A stretch of 14,606 nucleotides of DNA from Elainellaceae cyanobacterium. Lineage in GTDB: Bacteria; Cyanobacteriota; Cyanobacteriia; CAZCXK01. The notes under the pieces were generated by a model that was not told the DNA's origin, made no database searches, and was given only the letters and a program-made list of their open reading frames with translations. A program made the translations under genes and the position numbers. Numbering within the stretch: position 1 is the stretch's first letter; each line of letters begins with the position of its first letter. The stretch is from positions 1 through 14,606 of the forward strand of contig JBNPEG010000216.1 in the NCBI GenBank assembly GCA_051117555.1, read 5' to 3'. Below are positions 130-11,490 of the stretch, piece after piece.

Positions 130-861
130 GGTGTCATCATCAACATTTCAGGTGCTGGTGTGAGTGACCAACCGTGGTCGGATGCCTACAAGCAAGTCAT
201 GACCGATAGCCGTCTAGATACTACCCACACCTGCGTTGAGGTCTGAAAACAGAATCCCGCGATTCGTCTGATCAACGCGTCAGCGGTTAGTGCCTACGGG
301 TTTTATGAGGATGATCATGAGGCGTTTTCAGAAGCTGACAGCGATCGCAGGACAGGAACTTGCTTTTTGCAGGAGCTGATTGACCAATGGGAGCAGGCAA
401 CGAAGCCAGCGATGGAAGCAGGCAATCGGGTCGCGCTGCTGCGCATTGGGGTCGTATTTGATCGCTCCGAGGGCGCACTGCCAACCATGGCAACTCCGTT
501 TCCCTATTTCCTGGGGGGAAAATCTGGCACGGGGAAGCAAATCATGTCCTGGGTCAGTTTGCGCGATTTAGTCGCTGCCATCGAGTTCATTTTTGATCAT
601 CCAGACCTCAACGGGCCGACCAACGTCGTTTCGCCGGGAGCCTGTAGCAATCAGGTTTTTGCCCAAAGCCTGGGCAAAGCGTTGGGTAGACCAAGTCTCG
701 TACCTGCCCCCGCTTTCTTGATCAAAGCGCTAATGGGGCAACTGGGGCAAGAGCTGGTTCTGACGGGGCAGCGCGTCTCACCGAGCAAACTGCTGGATGC
801 GGGTTTCGTATTCCAGGATCAGGAAATCGAACAATGTTTGAGAGAAATTTACCGCCGTTAG
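130..861 (+). pseudogene. TIGR01777/YfcH-type NAD-dependent epimerase (SDR), disrupted
   Basis: Frame 1 reads GVIINISGAGVSDQPWSDAYKQVMTDSRLDTTHTCVEV*KQNPAIRLINASAVSAYG...WE...LRIGVV...GGKSGTGKQIMSWVSLRD...PSKLLDAGFVF. In-frame TGA at 244-246. The N-terminal GxxGxxG region is replaced by the IS630 end. Confidence 0.85.
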
Positions 862-964
862 ATCGTGATGGACTGATGGCGGTTGTGTGCTGCTTCTCTA
901 TAGATTTCACCGTCGATTGGTTCATAGCATTCGAGAAACCAGCATTTAATTCGGGAGTAAATGC

Positions 965-1357
965 ATGAATTCTACCTATGGAAGGTTATGTGGTATTACT
1001 GGTGGAGCACTGATATTGCTTGGTTTGACCCTACTTACCGTGATGCTGGTTTTCTTGGGCACGGGTCAGTCACCGATTCCAGTGGATGGCGTAGGGCATT
1101 ACTTTGTGGCATTTACGGGTTCTGTGCTAATGGTCTGGGGGGTGAGTCTACAAGTAGCCTCTCGGCATATGGAACTAGCACGTATCCTCGCCCCTGCTAA
1201 TGCAATTGGGATGGCGTTGATGGCGCTCTATCGATTGGTGATTGTGCTCAGCAGTGCTGATGTCAGAGCATGGATTGGCTTCCTTCCAATAGGCGAAGCG
1301 TTTCTTTTTGGTGGTTTAGCGATCGCCTTTTGGTGGGGACGCCCCAAGCCTGTTTAG
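965..1357 (+). CDS. Hypothetical integral membrane protein (about 4 TM helices), 130 aa
   Basis: GGAG at 954-957 upstream of the ATG; four hydrophobic segments. Confidence 0.75.
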   Translation: MNSTYGRLCGITGGALILLGLTLLTVMLVFLGTGQSPIPVDGVGHYFVAFTGSVLMVWGVSLQVASRHMELARILAPANAIGMALMALYRLVIVLSSADVRAWIGFLPIGEAFLFGGLAIAFWWGRPKPV

Positions 1358-1373
1358 GGCTGAGTGTTAAGCT

Positions 1374-1456
1374 ACCTAACGTGGAGCTGAGCGGCGGCCA
1401 GTATCTTGAGAAATATTAAGGATTGTCCGTCCGTCCGCTCCTGCGCAAGGTTATAT
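1374..1456 (-). other. Integron attC-like recombination site (83 bp)
   Basis: Minus strand: R'' ATATAAC, 5 nt, L'' GCAGGAGC, GG-A-CGG ... CCGCC, L' GCTCAGC, 5 nt, R' GTTAGGT. It has imperfect dyad symmetry with extra unpaired bases on the left arm as in known attC sites, and lies 46 nt after the helicase stop. Confidence 0.8.
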
Positions 1457-4243
1457 TGCTGCCAACAATTATTGGCTCATTCTATCTTTAAAATTACATG
1501 AATTATTGAACTGGCAAATCTTTCAGCTTTTTCTTTAGCAGCCAATCTTTAATATGTCGTAAATCAATTGATTTATCAGTATAAAATTTTAATGCATTGT
1601 CCTTTAATGCTTCCTCAGTATTGCCAGAGGCTGATGCACGTAGCTTTTCAAGCACGGTTGCAGTCTTTTTAAAGAGGTCAATTATCTCGTCATGAGAGAT
1701 GTAAGCAATATCTTTAAGATGAGGTACTGCTAACTGGTCAACAGTGTTTCTTGGAGAAATAACGACAGTAACACAAGGCATATATTTGGGAATAAGTTCA
1801 TCTGCACGAACTGTAGTTTCATGAGCACCTGCTTGTCGAAGTGTATCGAATGAAATCCCCCTTCCTGGCCTCTCGTTAGTTTTAGCTTCAAATACAAATG
1901 CACACCAATCTCCAAAGGTCCACAGTCCATCAGGTGCTCCATCTTCTTGACTCTTCTGATACATTTTCGAGCCGAGCATTCTTCCAAGAGCAGCTAAGCC
2001 TTTCTCAAACTCTCTAGCTTCTTTACTCCTGATTTGGGATTCCACATCGGCTAACCTGCGAGCGAATTTCCCACCTGTAATTCCCCATTCCTGAAGTAGT
2101 GTGTCGATCTCCAAGAACCAATCTTGTAAAGGTAAAGCTGTATCAATACTCTGATCAGATTGCCCTGAGACTTTAAAGCGCAGTTTTTCAAGCCATGTGA
2201 TGTGGGAAGAACTAGCTGCTGCTTTTTCTAAATTTGCAATAGTTGCAGTTCTAAATGACTCATTTTCTGAATGCTTCCAGGCTAAAAACGCAGCTTCAGC
2301 GGCCTGATGATACCAAAAAGCTCTGTATGGTTTTAGATCTGAACCTCCTTCCAAAGCATCAAGCACTTTATTTGACAAACTTAATGCGTCCTCATATCGA
2401 CCACGCCATAAAGAATATACATAGTCAATTTCATAAGGCATCGCTCTTGCTAGTGCATCGGCTGTCGAATCCGACACTTTTTCAAAAGCATCACGCCGCT
2501 TACGGATATCTTGTTCTGCTTCTTGCCATGCCGGATCACTATTGAGGAAAGCCTCAGAAAGTTCTACAAAATCTGATGTTTCATAATCTGTAGAGTTGTC
2601 TAGCCCGAATGCGATCTCAGCTTGTAATTCAGGGTGTATACCCTGTGTGAAGGTTTTAGTACAGTAACGCTTGGTTAACTTGTCTCCAATGACCACGACA
2701 ATAGAGTAATCGCTTTCATCACGAGTGCATCTTCCCATTGCTTGTGTAATCCGTGTTCGGATACGGTTTTGCAATTGAGAAGACACGCCAAGTCGAGTCC
2801 TCATATACATTTCTTGTAGTCCTGAAGCAGATGGTTCACCATCTAACACCATAAAGTGGCAATCATCTCCTGGAAGATCAATCCCATCGTAACGAGTTGC
2901 TAGTAGCAGAACAGATGGACTTGGATGCTTTGTGAATTTATCCAAATTCTGCTCAATATCCTCTGATTTAATAATGGTATGAGTTTCTTCTAAACCCTCT
3001 TCCCATTTACGAAGGCTATTGTTATCAGGAACAAGAATAAGAGCGCGAGAAACCTTCTTTATCATCTCAACTGAAGTTTTTACCGGATCTAAATTGGATG
3101 ATTGTCCTGGGAACAGAATTAGTCGCCTACCTGTACTCCGCTTATGCCATTCTTCGGGAATAGGCAATCGAGCAATTTTCTTTACTCCAAATACTCGTTC
3201 AATATCTCCATCTTCTCCTAGCGTAGCGGACATATATATACGCTGCTTTGCTTCTGAAAATGGGTGATGACTTTGTGTTGGTGGAATAAGCGGTCGAATC
3301 TCGATGGTTATAGGAGAGATATAAACTGAACATGCTTCAAGATGGGATGAAAGTATGCCCCATGAGTACTTTAAGTCTCTATGTTGAGGTGCAAATTCTT
3401 CTAATACTTCCTTCAGTTCATCTAAATACTCATGAACTGAAATGTTCGAAATCAGATCTACTAAGTATTCATCATACCGATTACTACTTTTTTCGATATG
3501 GTGCTTTATATAGTCAGGTATGGCGGACTGCAATAATCTATGTATAGCTGTATACAACTCCTTGTGTCTTAGCCGATTGATTGTAAGAGTCCATAAATCA
3601 ACAATGTAGTTATCCGCTGCATGAGCATCATCACAAATTATTACTTCGGGGTCATCTATACGAGGATTTGTATTGAAAACTCCACTGTAAGTTGTTATGG
3701 CAATAGCATTGCCTTGTTGATATTGGTAAAATAGAGACGAATCATACTCATTTTGGGGACCAATAAGCAGTGCAGTTTTAATACCATAGCGACGAGCTTG
3801 TTCATTAACTTGAAAACAAAGCTGTTTAGTTGGACACAAAAACACAATACGCTCTTTCAGAGCCCGACGGCGGTACTCTGCAATGAGAAGACCAATTAGA
3901 GTTTTTCCCGTACCTGTAGGTAGCTCAAGGGCTAGATCCTTACTTTTAAGATGTTCTTGATAATATCCTTCAAGCACTCTGTCCTGATGCGAATAAAGGT
4001 ATTTAACCGAAGGATCACGATTAAGATCCCTAAACATGAGCACTATAGATTGAGGCTTCGGTTCTTCAGAAGCAGAAGTACGAAATTTAACCATTGACTC
4101 CTCAGCAGATAATAATTTGTGGATTTTCAGTTTTATCCAGTTTAGCTGCTGTATTCAAGTATGACTTAGGCAGCTCAATCTCGTAGCTATAGAACTTCCT
4201 ATGTATTTCTATAGGAGGAGTTGAAGCAGTTGAAGCAATATAA
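1380..4243 (-). mobile_element. Integron-type gene cassette carrying the helicase-nuclease gene
   Basis: Bounded by GTTATATTGCT (minus strand, 4244-4234) and its exact inverted copy at the attC R'' end (1450-1460). AT-rich and free of HIP1. Confidence 0.72.
1503..4094 (-). CDS. SF2 DinG/XPD-like helicase fused to a C-terminal PD-(D/E)xK nuclease; Hna-like anti-phage candidate, 863 aa
   Basis: Motifs LPTGTGKT (I), IICDDAH (II), MSATLG (III), DGIDLPGD (V), QAMGRCTR (VI); C-terminal PDGLW...FEAKT; GAGGAG RBS at 4104-4099. Confidence 0.85.
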   Translation of the reverse strand: MVKFRTSASEEPKPQSIVLMFRDLNRDPSVKYLYSHQDRVLEGYYQEHLKSKDLALELPTGTGKTLIGLLIAEYRRRALKERIVFLCPTKQLCFQVNEQARRYGIKTALLIGPQNEYDSSLFYQYQQGNAIAITTYSGVFNTNPRIDDPEVIICDDAHAADNYIVDLWTLTINRLRHKELYTAIHRLLQSAIPDYIKHHIEKSSNRYDEYLVDLISNISVHEYLDELKEVLEEFAPQHRDLKYSWGILSSHLEACSVYISPITIEIRPLIPPTQSHHPFSEAKQRIYMSATLGEDGDIERVFGVKKIARLPIPEEWHKRSTGRRLILFPGQSSNLDPVKTSVEMIKKVSRALILVPDNNSLRKWEEGLEETHTIIKSEDIEQNLDKFTKHPSPSVLLLATRYDGIDLPGDDCHFMVLDGEPSASGLQEMYMRTRLGVSSQLQNRIRTRITQAMGRCTRDESDYSIVVVIGDKLTKRYCTKTFTQGIHPELQAEIAFGLDNSTDYETSDFVELSEAFLNSDPAWQEAEQDIRKRRDAFEKVSDSTADALARAMPYEIDYVYSLWRGRYEDALSLSNKVLDALEGGSDLKPYRAFWYHQAAEAAFLAWKHSENESFRTATIANLEKAAASSSHITWLEKLRFKVSGQSDQSIDTALPLQDWFLEIDTLLQEWGITGGKFARRLADVESQIRSKEAREFEKGLAALGRMLGSKMYQKSQEDGAPDGLWTFGDWCAFVFEAKTNERPGRGISFDTLRQAGAHETTVRADELIPKYMPCVTVVISPRNTVDQLAVPHLKDIAYISHDEIIDLFKKTATVLEKLRASASGNTEEALKDNALKFYTDKSIDLRHIKDWLLKKKLKDLPVQ

Positions 4244-5156: not shown

Positions 5157-6014
5157 CTAAACGGCAACAAGTTGAGGCCGACTGACCTGTTTGGGAATGG
5201 TTCGACCGACTGCGGCAGCAATGGGGTCGAGGCTTTGAACCAGGCTTACCATATCCTCAAGCGATAAGGCTTGGCGGGCATCAGACACAGACTCATCGGG
5301 CACAGGATGACACTCAATCATGAGTCCATCGGCTCCACAGGCGATCGCTGCACGTGCTAGGTCAGGCACGAGTTCGCGTTTTCCGGTTGCATGACTCGGA
5401 TCAACAATCACAGGGAGGTGGGTAATTTGCTTGAGTGCCACGACTGCCCCCAAATCAAGCACATTGCGCGTGTAGGTATCAAAACTGCGAATGCCGCGCT
5501 CGCATAAAATCACGTTTGGGTTACCGTGAGCGATGATATATTCTGCCGCCATCACAAACTCTTCAAGGGTTGCAGCAAGTCCACGCTTGAGCACGACTGG
5601 CGTGCCTGCTTGCCCAACGGCTTTGAGCAAATCAAAATTTTGCATATTGCGGCTGCCAATCTGGAGCACATCTGCGTGGGTGGCGATCGCCTCGATCTGA
5701 GAAATTGCCATGACCTCGGTAATGACGGGCAGATTGTGGCGGGTGCGAATGGTGTCCAAAATTTTAAGCCCCGCATCGCCTAATCCCTGGAACGAGTAAG
5801 GAGACGTGCGGGGCTTATAGACACCACCTCGGAGAGCTTGTACCGGGGCGATCGCCAGTTCTGTTGCGATTGTGTCCATTTGCTCAAGACTTTCAACCGA
5901 ACATGGCCCTCCCACAATCAGCAAGTCTGTTCCTCCGACTGCTACCTGGGCTGACAATTGCACAACGACCTGGTGATCATCATGAGATTTGCGAACGAGT
6001 TTGGCCTGTTGCAT
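5157..6014 (-). CDS. aroF: 3-deoxy-7-phosphoheptulonate (DAHP) synthase, type I-beta
   Basis: Motifs GPCSVES, RGGVYKPRTSPYSFQG, QIGSRNMQNF, LKRG, CERGIR, DPSH; AGGAG RBS. Confidence 0.95.
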   Translation of the reverse strand: MQQAKLVRKSHDDHQVVVQLSAQVAVGGTDLLIVGGPCSVESLEQMDTIATELAIAPVQALRGGVYKPRTSPYSFQGLGDAGLKILDTIRTRHNLPVITEVMAISQIEAIATHADVLQIGSRNMQNFDLLKAVGQAGTPVVLKRGLAATLEEFVMAAEYIIAHGNPNVILCERGIRSFDTYTRNVLDLGAVVALKQITHLPVIVDPSHATGKRELVPDLARAAIACGADGLMIECHPVPDESVSDARQALSLEDMVSLVQSLDPIAAAVGRTIPKQVSRPQLVAV

Positions 6015-6074
6015 GGAGTTCTCCTGACATTAAGTAATTGGATTTGATAACACATTGACCACGAGCAGCGCATT

Positions 6075-6105
6075 AAAAAACCCGGAACTGGTTACGTTCC
6101 GGGTT
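6075..6105 (-). terminator. Attenuator terminator proximal to aroF
   Basis: AACCCGGAAC-GTAACCA-GTTCCGGGTT-TTTT on the minus strand. Confidence 0.85.
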
Positions 6106-6129
6106 GGCTAGAAATATTGCATCACCAAC

Positions 6130-6204
6130 TTACCCGGAACGTGGGCGGGGCCAAAAATAAAAGCCAAAAAAGTAGCTTAGATGGGTGGATAAGCGGTTAA
6201 GCAT
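6130..6204 (-). CDS. Aromatic-rich leader peptide 2, MLNRLSTHLSYFFGFYFWPRPRSG (24 aa)
   Basis: ATG 6204 to TAA 6130; 7 aromatic codons within 8. Its 3' end CGTTCCGGGT is complementary to the 5' arm of the downstream terminator. Confidence 0.85.
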   Translation of the reverse strand: MLNRLSTHLSYFFGFYFWPRPRSG

Positions 6205-6249
6205 GAGTATGTCGAGACAATAAACGCCGGTTCAGATTCGGTATCCATT

Positions 6250-6282
6250 AAAAAGACCGCAAGCTCTAATCGAACTGCGGTC
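6250..6282 (-). terminator. Attenuator terminator distal to aroF
   Basis: GACCGCA...TGCGGTC-TTTTT on the minus strand. Confidence 0.75.
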
Positions 6283-6309
6283 CACCTAGAGGTTCATACG
6301 ACGATGAAT

Positions 6310-6366
6310 TCACCTCTGGTGAACCTCCGTAAACCAAAAATAAAAAAATCGCTTGCTGAGAATCAT
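6310..6366 (-). CDS. Aromatic-rich leader peptide 1, MILSKRFFYFWFTEVHQR (18 aa)
   Basis: ATG 6366 to TGA 6310; six consecutive Phe/Tyr/Trp codons, followed by a terminator. Confidence 0.8.
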   Translation of the reverse strand: MILSKRFFYFWFTEVHQR

Positions 6367-6600
6367 AGTTGACTGTCTAATTTTCCTAATTGAGTAGCTG
6401 CTCGAGCAGCGCCTTCTTGGATATGTCTAGAACATCTTTGGGACATCGTTGGACGCATTTCGCCCCGAAGAATATTTCTGAATATATCACCGGGCACATG
6501 TGCAGATTATCTGCGTCGCGTGCCTACACCTATCTTCTTAACAGAAGCAATCGAGTTGGGTCAAGACCTGATATGAGGAAACTATGACCCAACCCCTATG

Positions 6601-7047
6601 CTAAGCCTGCTGAGTTCGAGTCTGAACTCGCTCGTAAACGCGCTTGAGCTGGGCGATCGCCCGTTTCATCGCTTGTTTCTGTTCCGATGATGAGACATCG
6701 GATTGCAGTGCATCGAGCTGCTGGTGAGCTGTTTCTTGTTTGAGCAGCAATCGCTTCATACCCGGAACCGATGGAGAATCTGCTTTGAGAGCATCGATTT
6801 GCTGATCGAGCGTTTCAAGCTCAAGGGCAATCTGCTGAGCATACTCTTCGCCATCTGATCCAGACAGTGCTGAGTCGGAAGCATCGGATACAGACGCCTC
6901 TAATCCAGATCTGTCCGGTGAAGACGCTGCTGGCTCATCAGACGAAACAGCACTTCCATCAACGGGCCGATCTGGAGCACTACAAGCACCCAGCACAGCC
7001 GACGAGAGCAGAAGCGCTGCAAACGCAGACCTGACTAAATTGTTCAT
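6601..7047 (-). CDS. Hypothetical lipoprotein with coiled-coil C-terminus, 148 aa
   Basis: Signal peptide with lipobox LGAC, Ser/Asp-rich linker and helical C-terminus. Confidence 0.8.
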   Translation of the reverse strand: MNNLVRSAFAALLLSSAVLGACSAPDRPVDGSAVSSDEPAASSPDRSGLEASVSDASDSALSGSDGEEYAQQIALELETLDQQIDALKADSPSVPGMKRLLLKQETAHQQLDALQSDVSSSEQKQAMKRAIAQLKRVYERVQTRTQQA

Positions 7048-8662: not shown

Positions 8663-10132
8663 ATGTCAGCAGGGCAGTTCCAAACGTCACCTATGATCTC
8701 TGAACTACAGCAGGCACTTAATTCGATTCACGTTTCCGCCGACTGGGTTGGATTGCGCGTCGTCAAAGAAGCAATCAGCACCCGCTCCGTTCGGGATGGC
8801 AATCCGCAGAGAAACGGAAAATCTCTCGATCGCGGCATCATGGTCGAGGTTTTAGTCGATGGGCAGATTGGCTACGGCGCGACGAATTCTCTGAGTCCTG
8901 ATGCGATTCAAGCCGCGGCTCAGACGGCCTATCAGCAGGCTAAGGCAGCGAGCCAATGGGCGCTTCATCCTTTCACAACCGCGGTACGCCCTAAAGTAGT
9001 GGGCAACTACGTCTCACCGTTTCTAAAGCCACTGGATGTGCTTAGTCCTGGCGATATCAACGATTTGCTGGTGCGGATCTGTAAGACGATGAAAATATCC
9101 GATCAGATCGTGCAGGCGATCGCCACCGCAGTGACTAATGAGACAGAGACGTGGTTTGTCAGCAGCAACGGCTCTGAGGTGTATCAAAAGTTTCTGATGC
9201 TGCAAACTCATTTTGGCGTGACGGCTCAAGATGGGGCGATCGTGCAACATCGGAGCGATCATGGGTTTCGTGCTCACTGTCACCAAGGTGGCTGGGAACT
9301 CTTTCCGTTAGACGCAATCTGGGATCAGGCGCAAACGGTTGGGGAACAAGGGATTGAATTACTCTCTGCTGATGATTGTCCGACGGCTACCACTCATCTT
9401 GTCCTCGCGCCTGACCAGATGATGCTTCAAATTCACGAAAGCGTAGGGCATCCCCTTGAGCTCGATCGCATCCTCGGGGACGAACGGAACTATGCAGGGG
9501 GCAGCTTTGTGAAGCCCTCAGACTTTGGTACGTTGTCCTACGGCTCGACGCTGATGAATATCACCTTTGACCCTACTGTGGCTGGAGAGTTTGCGAGTTA
9601 TAACTTTGATGACACCGGGAATCCGGCAACTAAAGAATATTTGATTCGCGACGGGATGCTGATGCGAGGACTCGGGAGTCTAGAGAGCCAAACTCGACTC
9701 GGCGTTGCAGGAGTTGCCAATGCCCGTGCATCGTCGTGGAATCGCCCCCCGATTGACCGCATGGCAAATATCAACCTGGAGCCCGGCACCGAATCATTGG
9801 AGGAGCTGATCAGCGACATTGAACACGGCGTCTATATGGAAGCCAATCGCTCGTGGTCGATTGACGATCAGCGCTATAAATTTCAGTTTGGGTGCGAATA
9901 TGCCAGGCTCATTGAAAATGGCACGCTGACTAAACCGTTGCGAAACCCAAACTATCGAGCTACAACGCCAGAATTTTGGCATAGCCTTGTCCGCATTGGG
10001 GATGCAAAAACCTGGGAAAACTACGGCACCCCCTATTGCGGCAAAGGGGAGCCCAATCAGGCCATTCGAGTGGGGCATGGCTCACCCGTCTGCGTCTTTG
10101 AACAAGTAGAAGTGTTTGGGGGAGATGCATGA
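8663..10132 (+). CDS. tldD: TldD/PmbA-family metalloprotease, catalytic TldD subunit (true start may be 8693)
   Basis: HESVGH zinc motif, PIDRMAN, CGKGEP. Confidence 0.92.
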   Translation: MSAGQFQTSPMISELQQALNSIHVSADWVGLRVVKEAISTRSVRDGNPQRNGKSLDRGIMVEVLVDGQIGYGATNSLSPDAIQAAAQTAYQQAKAASQWALHPFTTAVRPKVVGNYVSPFLKPLDVLSPGDINDLLVRICKTMKISDQIVQAIATAVTNETETWFVSSNGSEVYQKFLMLQTHFGVTAQDGAIVQHRSDHGFRAHCHQGGWELFPLDAIWDQAQTVGEQGIELLSADDCPTATTHLVLAPDQMMLQIHESVGHPLELDRILGDERNYAGGSFVKPSDFGTLSYGSTLMNITFDPTVAGEFASYNFDDTGNPATKEYLIRDGMLMRGLGSLESQTRLGVAGVANARASSWNRPPIDRMANINLEPGTESLEELISDIEHGVYMEANRSWSIDDQRYKFQFGCEYARLIENGTLTKPLRNPNYRATTPEFWHSLVRIGDAKTWENYGTPYCGKGEPNQAIRVGHGSPVCVFEQVEVFGGDA

Positions 10133-11490
10133 TGATTCAGGCTATGCCTACACGAATAATCGCCTCGTTTGAATCGACCTTTGGCCAGGTTGTCGACGCG
10201 CTTCTCAATGCCCTCAATGCTGACGAATATTTAACCATTCAGTTAGTCGGTGAAGATAGCCAGTTTATTCGGTTTAATCATGCCAGAGTCCGGCAAACCG
10301 GATGCGTTACTGACGGACAGATGAAACTGACGCTGATGCACAATCAGCGCATGAGCTTTCGGTCATTTCCGTTTCGGGGTGAATGGGATGGGGATTGGGC
10401 CTATGCAAAAGCGGCGCTCGACGAGCTACGTCAAGAGGTTCCGCAGCTTCCTGTTGATCCCTATTTGGTGCTCCCAACAGGAAATGCGACCAGCCGCGAT
10501 CGCCACCAAGGACAGCTCCTTTCACACGATTCGGCGGTCGATGAAATCTTGCCTGCCGTAAGTGGGCTAGACTTTGCAGGAATTTATGCGGGAGGCTTGT
10601 CTATTCGGGCGTATGCCGATTCGGTTGGGCAACGCCATTGGTTTGCGACAGACTCATTTGCGCTCGATTATTCAATCTTTGCTGACGACGGGCAAGCCGT
10701 TAAGGGCACGTTCGCCGGAACTGACTGGGATGCGCACTCCTATGCTGAAACCCTAGCCACGTCAAAGCGCCAGCTTGAAAAACTTGCGCGATCGCCCAAA
10801 CAGGTTCCCAAAGGACACTATCGCACCTATTTTTCGCCGGCGGCAGTTGCAGATTTGGTGAGCATGTTTTCGTGGGGATGTGTGAGTGAGGCATCCCTCC
10901 AGCGAGGGGGAAGCGCATTAGGTGCCCTCCAGAGAGGTGATAAAGCGCTGTCGCCGCTGTTTACGCTCAGCGAAAATTTTGCCCGTGGATTGGTGCCTCG
11001 CTTCAACGATTTGGGAGAAGTCGCTCCAGTAGAGTTGCCCCTGATTAAAAACGGCAAACTTATGAACACGCTGATCAGTTCTCGGACTGCCAAAGAATAC
11101 GGCAAAACGGCTAATGGGGCAGCTAGTGGAGAATATCTGCGATCGCCTGAGGTCAGCCTAGGCACCCTATCCACCTCAGATATTCTCCCCGCTCTTGATA
11201 CGGGGCTGTATGTCTCTAACCTGCACTATCTCAACTGGAGCGATCGCCAAAATGGTCGCGTCACGGGCATGACTCGCTATGCGTGCTTTTGGGTAGAAGA
11301 CGGAGAGATGATTGCTCCCATCAAAGATCTTCGATTTGATGAAAGCCTCTACCGATTTTTTGGCGAGAATCTCATCAACCTAACCAATGTTCCAGAATTT
11401 ATTCCTGAAGTAGGCACCTACGGACTGCGAGATTTGGGTGGGACCTGGGTTCCCGGTGCGCTTGTCGAAGGATTTACCTACACGCTCTGA
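10129..11490 (+). CDS. tldE: TldE/PmbA-like partner subunit
   Basis: ATGA overlap with tldD; TldE-like C-terminus (TGMTRYACFWVEDG...LRFDES); lacks HExxxH. Confidence 0.85.
   Translation: MMIQAMPTRIIASFESTFGQVVDALLNALNADEYLTIQLVGEDSQFIRFNHARVRQTGCVTDGQMKLTLMHNQRMSFRSFPFRGEWDGDWAYAKAALDELRQEVPQLPVDPYLVLPTGNATSRDRHQGQLLSHDSAVDEILPAVSGLDFAGIYAGGLSIRAYADSVGQRHWFATDSFALDYSIFADDGQAVKGTFAGTDWDAHSYAETLATSKRQLEKLARSPKQVPKGHYRTYFSPAAVADLVSMFSWGCVSEASLQRGGSALGALQRGDKALSPLFTLSENFARGLVPRFNDLGEVAPVELPLIKNGKLMNTLISSRTAKEYGKTANGAASGEYLRSPEVSLGTLSTSDILPALDTGLYVSNLHYLNWSDRQNGRVTGMTRYACFWVEDGEMIAPIKDLRFDESLYRFFGENLINLTNVPEFIPEVGTYGLRDLGGTWVPGALVEGFTYTL

Follow-up and report, generated by a model that had tools for sequence, protein, structure and literature searches.

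Two conserved leader-peptide units, likely transcription attenuators in series, precede a cyanobacterial DAHP synthase gene

Why is one biosynthetic gene preceded by two short reading frames rich in aromatic codons, each with a hairpin and a run of T residues behind it? The question is raised by a DAHP synthase gene of an Elainellaceae cyanobacterium (GCA_051117555.1, own genome of 6.06 Mb), which lies on the minus strand of contig JBNPEG010000216.1 within the 14,606 nt analyzed here, hereafter the window. From the sequence elements and their conservation, we consider it likely, with a probability of about 0.8, that the two leader/antiterminator/terminator units in series are two ribosome-mediated transcription attenuators, at which charged tRNA-Phe, tRNA-Tyr and tRNA-Trp are sensed. 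The elements of the locus are listed below in the order of transcription.

6535..6564, minus strand: promoter-like site, with -35 TTGACC at 6564-6559, 15 nt, TGT, and a -10-like TAAGAA at 6540-6535; assigned by homology.
6310..6366, minus strand: leader ORF 1, MILSKRFFYFWFTEVHQR, 18 codons plus TGA, read directly from the sequence.
6331..6348, minus strand: F F Y F W F, six consecutive aromatic codons in leader 1 at which sensing is predicted, from the codon table.
6313..6325, minus strand: 5' arm of antiterminator 1 (AT1), GGTTCACCAGAGG, in the final codons of leader 1 (E-V-H-Q-R).
6293..6308, minus strand: small hairpin TTCAT...ATGAA in the AT1 loop; the counterpart helix in the orthologs is paired.
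6279..6292, minus strand: 3' arm of AT1, CCTCTAGGTGGACC, whose last 4 nt double as the base of the T1 stem.
6250..6282, minus strand: terminator 1 (T1), GACCGCA...TGCGGTC followed by TTTTT, predicted from the fold and covariation.
6130..6204, minus strand: leader ORF 2, MLNRLSTHLSYFFGFYFWPRPRSG, 24 codons plus TAA, read directly from the sequence.
6151..6174, minus strand: Y F F G F Y F W, the aromatic stretch in leader 2, from the codon table.
6125..6141, minus strand: 5' arm of antiterminator 2 (AT2), made of CGTTCCGGGT, the stop codon and GTTGG, from covariation and the fold.
6095..6107, minus strand: 3' arm of AT2, CCAACCCGGAACG, which doubles as the 5' arm of T2.
6075..6105, minus strand: terminator 2 (T2), AACCCGGAAC / GTTCCGGGTT followed by more Ts, predicted from the terminator scan and covariation.
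6024-6021, minus strand: GGAG, Shine-Dalgarno sequence of the DAHP synthase gene, from the sequence.
5157..6014, minus strand: DAHP synthase of type I-beta, catalytic core only, 285 aa (Pfam DAHP_synth_1, E 4.7e-77).

The original prediction had placed two short ORFs on the strand of the synthase gene, and both read exactly as it stated. Its hairpin plus U-tract after each leader was found as well, T1 at 6282-6250 and T2 at 6105-6075, with predicted folds of -16.2 kcal/mol for T1 and -16.7 kcal/mol (10 pairs) for T2. The end of leader 2 had further been called a perfect complement of the 5' arm of its terminator, and indeed CGTTCCGGGT is the reverse complement of ACCCGGAACG without a mismatch. 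In the window this complement is extended by TTGG:CCAA, so that the AT2 helix (6141-6125 with 6107-6095) reaches -23.5 kcal/mol. Aromatic codons stand in an unbroken row of six in leader 1 and take seven of the eight positions of the run in leader 2.

Unit 1 of the window also holds an antiterminator, AT1 (6325-6313 with 6292-6279, -21.9 kcal/mol), which the earlier description did not include. The AT1 helix encloses the small hairpin, and it is with its last four bases that it reaches into the stem of T1. We speculate that the small hairpin may act as a pause signal.

The gene downstream is one of three I-beta DAHP synthase paralogs in the own genome. A paralog of 353 aa (L002) can be aligned over the full length of the Thermotoga enzyme 1rzm, with the N-terminal domain, through which feedback inhibition acts, included. 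Alignment of the window enzyme to 1rzm begins only at chain residue 70, and among solved structures it is most similar to 1vs1 and 1zco, both unadorned enzymes. Judged by these alignments, the putatively attenuated isozyme is without the regulatory (extra N-terminal) domain, and therefore attenuation would be its main feedback control; the missing domain fits control at the level of transcription. If this is true, many filamentous cyanobacteria would enter the shikimate pathway with one feedback-inhibitable isozyme and one isozyme used in starvation only. In addition, the RNA-binding domain family of Rho was not found in the own genome (100% complete), which fits a control that relies on intrinsic terminators.

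To analyze the conservation of the leaders, we took the best 80 of 518 relatives of the window protein, with one genome per species; these are 72-93% identical to it. Among them are Elainellaceae, Leptolyngbyaceae, Oculatella, Stenomitos, Coleofasciculus, Microcoleus, Desertifilum, Scytonema, Fischerella and many Nostoc. We excluded L040 and L065, both truncated on the upstream side, and leader counts refer to the window plus the remaining 78 loci (n = 79). Leader 2 is present in 79/79 loci and leader 1 in 78/79, with L045 as the exception. A typical leader 1 ends in ..SYFYFWFrvVHRE, and a typical leader 2 reads MTYfSSWFYGFYFWPRxSSG. Leader 1 is 18 aa long in 64/77 loci and starts with ATG in 76/77; leader 2 is 20 aa long in 43/73 and starts with ATG in 64/73, counts that omit the one leader 1 locus and the six leader 2 loci that failed the start-finding rule. 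A Shine-Dalgarno-like 4-mer precedes leader 1 in only 2/77 loci.

The sequences of the two leaders are constrained very unevenly. Positions -12 to -7 of leader 1, read with the codon table, are almost exclusively F, Y or W, and all three aromatic amino acids occur in 76/78 leader 1 and 77/79 leader 2 sequences. Within the aromatic core of both leaders, synonymous changes (TAC/TAT and TTT/TTC) stand next to swaps among the three aromatic amino acids; one of these swaps, TTT to TGG, takes two base changes. The N-terminal halves vary freely, and the indels within the leader ORFs are 3 nt long in both alignments. At the other end, the conserved tails (V-H in leader 1, S-S-G in leader 2) are encoded by precisely those bases that take part in antiterminator pairing. 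This pattern shows selection on aromatic identity, not on the peptide as such. The arrangement as a whole is also beyond chance, as shown mainly by the conservation of both leaders.

An alignment of the upstream regions had been suggested as a check on the attenuator reading. It returned both of the things looked for, namely conserved uORFs with aromatic codons (78/79 and 79/79) and covarying stems. For the stems we used two alignments, A1 of unit 1 (n = 78 sequences) and A2 of unit 2 (n = 79), with the following results.

AT1, A1 columns 27-37 with 68-78: 94.6% of cells paired, double-sided changes in 6/11 pairs.
Inner hairpin of unit 1: 82% of cells paired, double-sided changes in 5/6 pairs.
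T1, main helix of 8 pairs: 99.5% of cells paired over 76 distinct sequences, double-sided changes in 3/8 pairs.
AT2, A2 columns 29-36 with 70-77: 95.4% of cells paired, double-sided changes in 2/8 pairs.
T2: 97.9% of cells paired, double-sided changes in 3/9 pairs.

For each helix, 0/500 shuffles matched the observed percentage of pairing or the covariation score, although these shuffle counts are not probabilities because the sequences share kinship. When the registers were slid by 1-3 columns, at most 73% of cells paired. In unit 2, where one arm is common to AT2 and T2, changes in the shared arm are followed, or tolerated by wobble pairing, in both partners. Six sequences have G in place of A at A2 column 76, and in all six the leader tail has C in place of T; the 3' arm of T2 has C in three of them and keeps its T, forming a G-U pair, in the other three.

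The double role of the tails bears on whether the peptides themselves could be the signal. They might be arrest peptides like TnaC, in which a free aromatic amino acid in the tunnel holds the ribosome at the stop codon and so raises termination. Leader 1 indeed stops with TGA in 56/58 distinct sequences, and its V-H tail is near-invariant; leader 2, which uses all three stops, ends in P-R-x-S-S-G, and a ribosome at either stop codon covers the antiterminator arm. However, the conserved tail bases pair in covarying helices, which explains their conservation without a peptide function, and F, Y and W are swapped freely, unlike in a fixed arrest motif. We therefore regard arrest peptides as highly improbable here.

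We then asked where transcription may start. A TTGAC-N16-19-TAnnnT motif, in most cases with TGn ahead of the -10, lies 5' of leader 1 in 70/78 loci; the median distance from the end of its -10 box to the start of leader 1 is 48 nt. Elsewhere the motif was absent, with 0/78 in the spacers between the leaders, 0/79 in those from leader 2 to the gene, and 0/81 in stretches within the gene. The homologous motif of the window (6564-6535) and of its closest relative (L004) is conserved between the two, lies further upstream and has an imperfect -10; about 150 poorly conserved bases separate it from leader 1. The window site is ~170 nt 5' of the leader 1 ATG, and the final base of its -10 is A, not T. 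From this distribution we infer a transcription start ahead of leader 1.

The position of the promoter motif also matters for a different explanation of the hairpins. They could be the ends of small RNAs or of genes for small proteins, with the hydrophobic micropeptides being functional and the DAHP synthase gene transcribed separately. The conservation of both ORFs with an ATG start and the strength of the terminators would suit such genes, and short transcripts ending at T1 or T2 are expected under any model. Against this, no consensus promoter was seen either between the leaders or between leader 2 and the gene. Moreover, the conservation of the peptides is limited to aromatic identity while their tail residues track the RNA pairing, a constitutive terminator needs no covarying competitor helix, and in the 151 genomes searched the element is confined to this DAHP synthase. 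Small RNAs or micropeptides are thus quite unlikely to account for the locus.

Taken together, the locus combines an aromatic-codon uORF, a predicted terminator and an antiterminator that a ribosome could select with a gene in the pathway of the sensed amino acids, the features by which attenuators are classed. The sequence-level predictions of the attenuator reading that could be tested (aromatic uORFs, covarying helices, a single promoter and association with the ortholog) all held.

Under the attenuator reading, transcription would start ~40 nt 5' of leader 1 in most orthologs and ~160 nt in the window. In each unit the 3' arm of the antiterminator serves in the terminator stem as well; unit 1 shares the final 4 nt of this arm, and unit 2 the whole 5' arm of its terminator. 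An ample supply of charged tRNA-Phe, tRNA-Tyr and tRNA-Trp would let the leading ribosome reach the stop codon and cover the 5' arm of the antiterminator. The terminator would then form, and RNA polymerase would stop at ~6250 or ~6075. If any one of the three charged tRNAs is scarce, the ribosome would stall on the aromatic codons, 7-14 codons ahead of the stop, and the free 5' arm could pair with the newly made 3' arm. This would block the terminator, and the polymerase would read on. The DAHP synthase gene would be transcribed only after both checkpoints are passed. The two serial switches may provide the steep integrated control that the original prediction had envisaged.

To see whether the RNA could behave in this way, we folded the units with a ribosome mask that extends 15 nt to the 5' side and 12 nt to the 3' side of the first A-site base. 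Nascent folds, that is, folds of the transcript before the 3' arm of the terminator exists, were chosen over equilibrium folds. Without a ribosome, the antiterminator was dominant in the nascent transcript of 76/78 loci for unit 1 and 75/79 for unit 2. An A site placed at -8 to -13 made it dominant in 74-78 of 78 loci for unit 1, and one placed at -7 to -14 in 78-79 of 79 for unit 2. For leader 1, the number dropped to only 38/78 at the final aromatic codon (-7). A ribosome placed at the stop codon of the full-length unit made the terminator dominant in 75/78 (unit 1) and 79/79 (unit 2), which is a matter of geometry and not a test, since this mask forbids the antiterminator by construction.

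In the window, unit 2 is predicted to be a clean switch, with a terminator probability of 0.00 for the stalled ribosome vs 0.96 for the ribosome at the stop. Unit 1 of the window is predicted to be a poorer switch than its orthologs: the antiterminator reaches a probability of at most 0.73 in the nascent and at most 0.47 in the full-length fold, and T1 stays at 0.70 or more at every ribosome position. Equilibrium folding was rejected as a full test of unit 2, since it favors the terminator in most orthologs, and in 47-71 of 79 even when a ribosome is stalled. Therefore, the unit 2 switch would have to be kinetic. The choice of fold in the E. coli trp leader is likewise kinetic.

The nascent folds also predict that an untranslated leader would read through, unlike the classical trp design. 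In the trpL/pheL geometry, a clear 1:2 helix makes the untranslated leader terminate. Such a helix is hinted in unit 1 of the cyanobacterial device and was not found in unit 2. The unit 1 candidate joins the U-rich aromatic codons with the purine-rich tail and UGA, and is 93% paired. Slid registers reach at most 64%, but shuffles reach 92.7%, and only one double change was seen. A 1:2 helix of this kind would explain why the stop codon of leader 1 is nearly always TGA.

Folding energies and general scans were applied to the window as well. The entire leader of 406 nt is more stable than all 100 shuffles (z -2.63). Of T1 and T2, a simple terminator scan picks up T2 only, because the loop of T1 exceeds the limit of the scan. 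The total of 2 sites is not above chance (shuffle mean 2.5), and therefore the terminator scan alone proves nothing. With cmscan of 5900-6700 at E up to 10, no Rfam family was matched: there was no covariance-model match to Phe_leader, Trp_leader or other curated leader families, and none to the T-box model. The search gave only four chance-level matches to unrelated families, with ~16 bits each vs gathering scores of 32-79.

Across the own genome (6.06 Mb), 278 ORF tails have at least five aromatic residues in seven, and 6/278 have a simple terminator at most 130 nt downstream. Leader 2 is among these six and is the only convincing case; leader 1 escapes through the loop limit of the scan. 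One further match (C189), an out-of-frame ORF over the terminator of a light-harvesting-like gene, was rejected by eye as a chance match.

How does the locus compare with known systems? Leader-peptide attenuation is textbook biology in proteobacteria and actinobacteria, and an aroR-aroF leader-peptide attenuator in Corynebacterium glutamicum was reportedly described by Neshat et al. in 2014. The aroR-aroF system is the closest functional precedent, with an aromatic-codon leader before a DAHP synthase gene: according to the accessible text of PMC11802643, ribosome stalling on a Phe-Tyr-Phe leader peptide raises transcription of the DAHP synthase operon. It differs from the cyanobacterial device in its single leader, in the phylum and in a motif that, as described in that text, has no Trp codon (PMC11802643). 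It is also reported there to respond to Phe and not to Tyr (PMC11802643). The likeness between the two is a functional one.

The E. coli trpL-trpEDCBA and pheL-pheA leaders are also described in PMC11802643. As in our units, a short ORF is rich in the cognate codons, antiterminator and terminator exclude each other, and the signal is where the ribosome stands. They differ in that each senses one amino acid, and no Rfam family matches the cyanobacterial device. For an arrangement in tandem, the Salmonella mgtCBR leader is a precedent, but it belongs to a virulence/Mg2+ transport operon and not to a biosynthetic gene. Its ORFs answer to different signals, not to two copies of the same amino-acid signal. 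It is alike in its two short ORFs, each of which is expected, in the accessible portion of PMC3641672, to control alternative stem-loops and transcription.

Within cyanobacteria, the accessible text of a 2026 preprint suggests that Synechocystis Sml0012, 45 aa long and encoded upstream of aroQ, is a possible attenuator peptide (bioRxiv 10.64898/2025.12.20.695498). Sml0012 differs in being a validated protein at another gene, and that text mentions neither an aromatic run nor a terminator/antiterminator pair (bioRxiv 10.64898/2025.12.20.695498). In the literature covered, which includes subscription journals thinly and leaves a mention in a transcriptome supplement possible, there was no description of the device in cyanobacteria. 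The view that attenuation is little described in this group, voiced in the original prediction, agrees with this and with a 2016 paper, whose accessible text states that reliable data for attenuation in cyanobacteria are lacking (PMC4833913).

It is rather probable that the locus represents the first leader-peptide attenuation in cyanobacteria, with two serial switches that each read all three aromatic amino acids, an allosterically blind isozyme, and tight coupling of ribosome and polymerase. As a conserved and covarying double attenuator, it would be a concrete system in which to ask about the coupling of the leading ribosome and RNA polymerase in cyanobacteria. The device would respond to aromatic supply and could thus serve as a genetic part for strains that make aromatic products.

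Finally, we examined how the two units are distributed in the phylum by searching one set of 151 genomes, drawn from across it, with covariance models of unit 1 (R1) and unit 2 (R2) and with the protein. The identity of the DAHP synthase is bimodal, with a best match of at least 67% in 21 genomes and at most 56% in all others. All 21 ortholog-bearing genomes have at least one unit, in one copy per genome and directly 5' of the gene, and 19/21 have both. The 130 genomes without the ortholog gave one R1 match (G050), a leader 1 beside a remnant frame of ~130 aa, the mark of a decaying locus. Apart from this remnant, the device was found only at this DAHP synthase ortholog among the 151 genomes.

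With the remnant counted, carriers are 22/53 of the sampled genomes in the class of the window, and there was no convincing match in the 98 sampled genomes of other classes of the phylum. Three R2 matches in another class (~28.7 bits, E ~5e-4) were treated as false: two of them (G069 and G105) have no aromatic leader, and the third (G129) matches the terminator half only.

Three loci have a single unit, namely leader 1 only in G038 and leader 2 only in G089 and L045. Each unit can therefore stand alone. Such loci, along with the poor predicted switch of unit 1 in the window, might suggest that only one unit is a working switch and that the other is a decaying duplicate or a plain pause/terminator element. 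R1 also weakly matches unit 2 (20.9 bits), and the stem sequences of both units are similar, which gives a hint, indistinguishable from convergence, that units 1 and 2 may come from one duplication; common descent of this kind would suit a decaying duplicate. Yet both units are kept in 78/79 loci, with compensatory changes in both antiterminators and both terminators, and each unit type occurs alone before an intact gene. A single working switch is very unlikely on this evidence. Under the reading of two attenuators in series, the natural single-unit variants bear on why two switches are kept; a second switch could lower leakiness or steepen the response.

Among the ortholog loci, one contig labelled Sericytochromatia (L012) has leaders near-identical to those of a Stenomitos locus (L038), and we doubt its label.

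Leader 1, the upstream of the two aromatic-codon leader ORFs preceding the DAHP synthase gene, has a candidate pairing of its own. Its U-rich aromatic codons can pair with the purine-rich tail and the UGA stop codon, and 93% of the cells in the alignment of unit 1 sequences (A1) are paired.

Window 6366-6250, minus strand: leader 1 codon-tail pairing, A1 columns 5-15 with 33-43.

This candidate pairing, as read from the alignment, would account for the almost invariable use of TGA as the leader 1 stop codon.

We also compared the two attenuator units, each comprising a leader with its antiterminator and terminator. The unit 1 covariance model matched unit 2 weakly, at 20.9 bits (orthologous locus L045, 1377-1494), and the antiterminator stems in the consensus lines of A1 and its unit 2 counterpart A2 look related (GGTTCACCGGG:CCCGGTGAACC versus GTTCCGGG:CCCGGAAC). 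Together, the weak model match and the likeness of the stems hint at an old tandem duplication behind the two units.

Three loci carry a single leader and are natural single-attenuator variants; a fourth is a locus in decay, in which leader 2 is absent and only a frame of about 130 aa remains of the DAHP synthase.

L108 (genome G038): leader 1 only, intact gene downstream.
L110 (genome G089): leader 2 only, intact gene downstream.
L045: leader 2 only, intact gene downstream.
L109 (G050:C49), about 531-894, minus strand: leader 1 type ORF MFSSRSYFYFWFRVVHWE retained.

On the promoter side of leader 1, many aligned orthologs have a short inverted repeat, rich in GC, right next to the conserved TTGAC of the promoter. 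It could be the terminator of the upstream gene or a protein-binding site. In the window, about 36 nt separate the promoter-like site from the end of a 148-aa ORF upstream of it, and L004, the window's closest relative, keeps this ORF beside the leader.

Directly upstream of the -35 box, in the alignment: inverted repeat, seen in L013, L076, L006, L067, L021 and L015.
Window 6601-7047, minus strand: 148-aa ORF without a Pfam match.

The leaders of L012, on a 5.5-kb contig from a MAG labelled Candidatus Sericytochromatia, hardly differ from the Stenomitos frigidus leaders (L038), and the taxonomic label of this contig looks doubtful.

The window's own genome holds a third DAHP synthase paralog, clustered with three further ORFs on the same strand. 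Judged from sequence alone, these neighbours resemble a sugar-phosphate epimerase with fused CBS domains, a HAD-type phosphatase and a cytidylyltransferase, and the cluster may belong to a pathway for sugar acids and not to aromatic synthesis.

L003 (G000:C105), 209-3790: cluster holding the third paralog (340 aa, extended at the N-terminus).

Other genes in the window include one for a helicase and, elsewhere, two neighbouring ones for metallopeptidases.

Window 1503-4094, minus strand: 863-aa helicase with ResIII, DEAD and Helicase_C_2 domains.
Window 8663-11490, plus strand: adjoining pair of TldD/PmbA-family metallopeptidase genes (489 and 453 aa).
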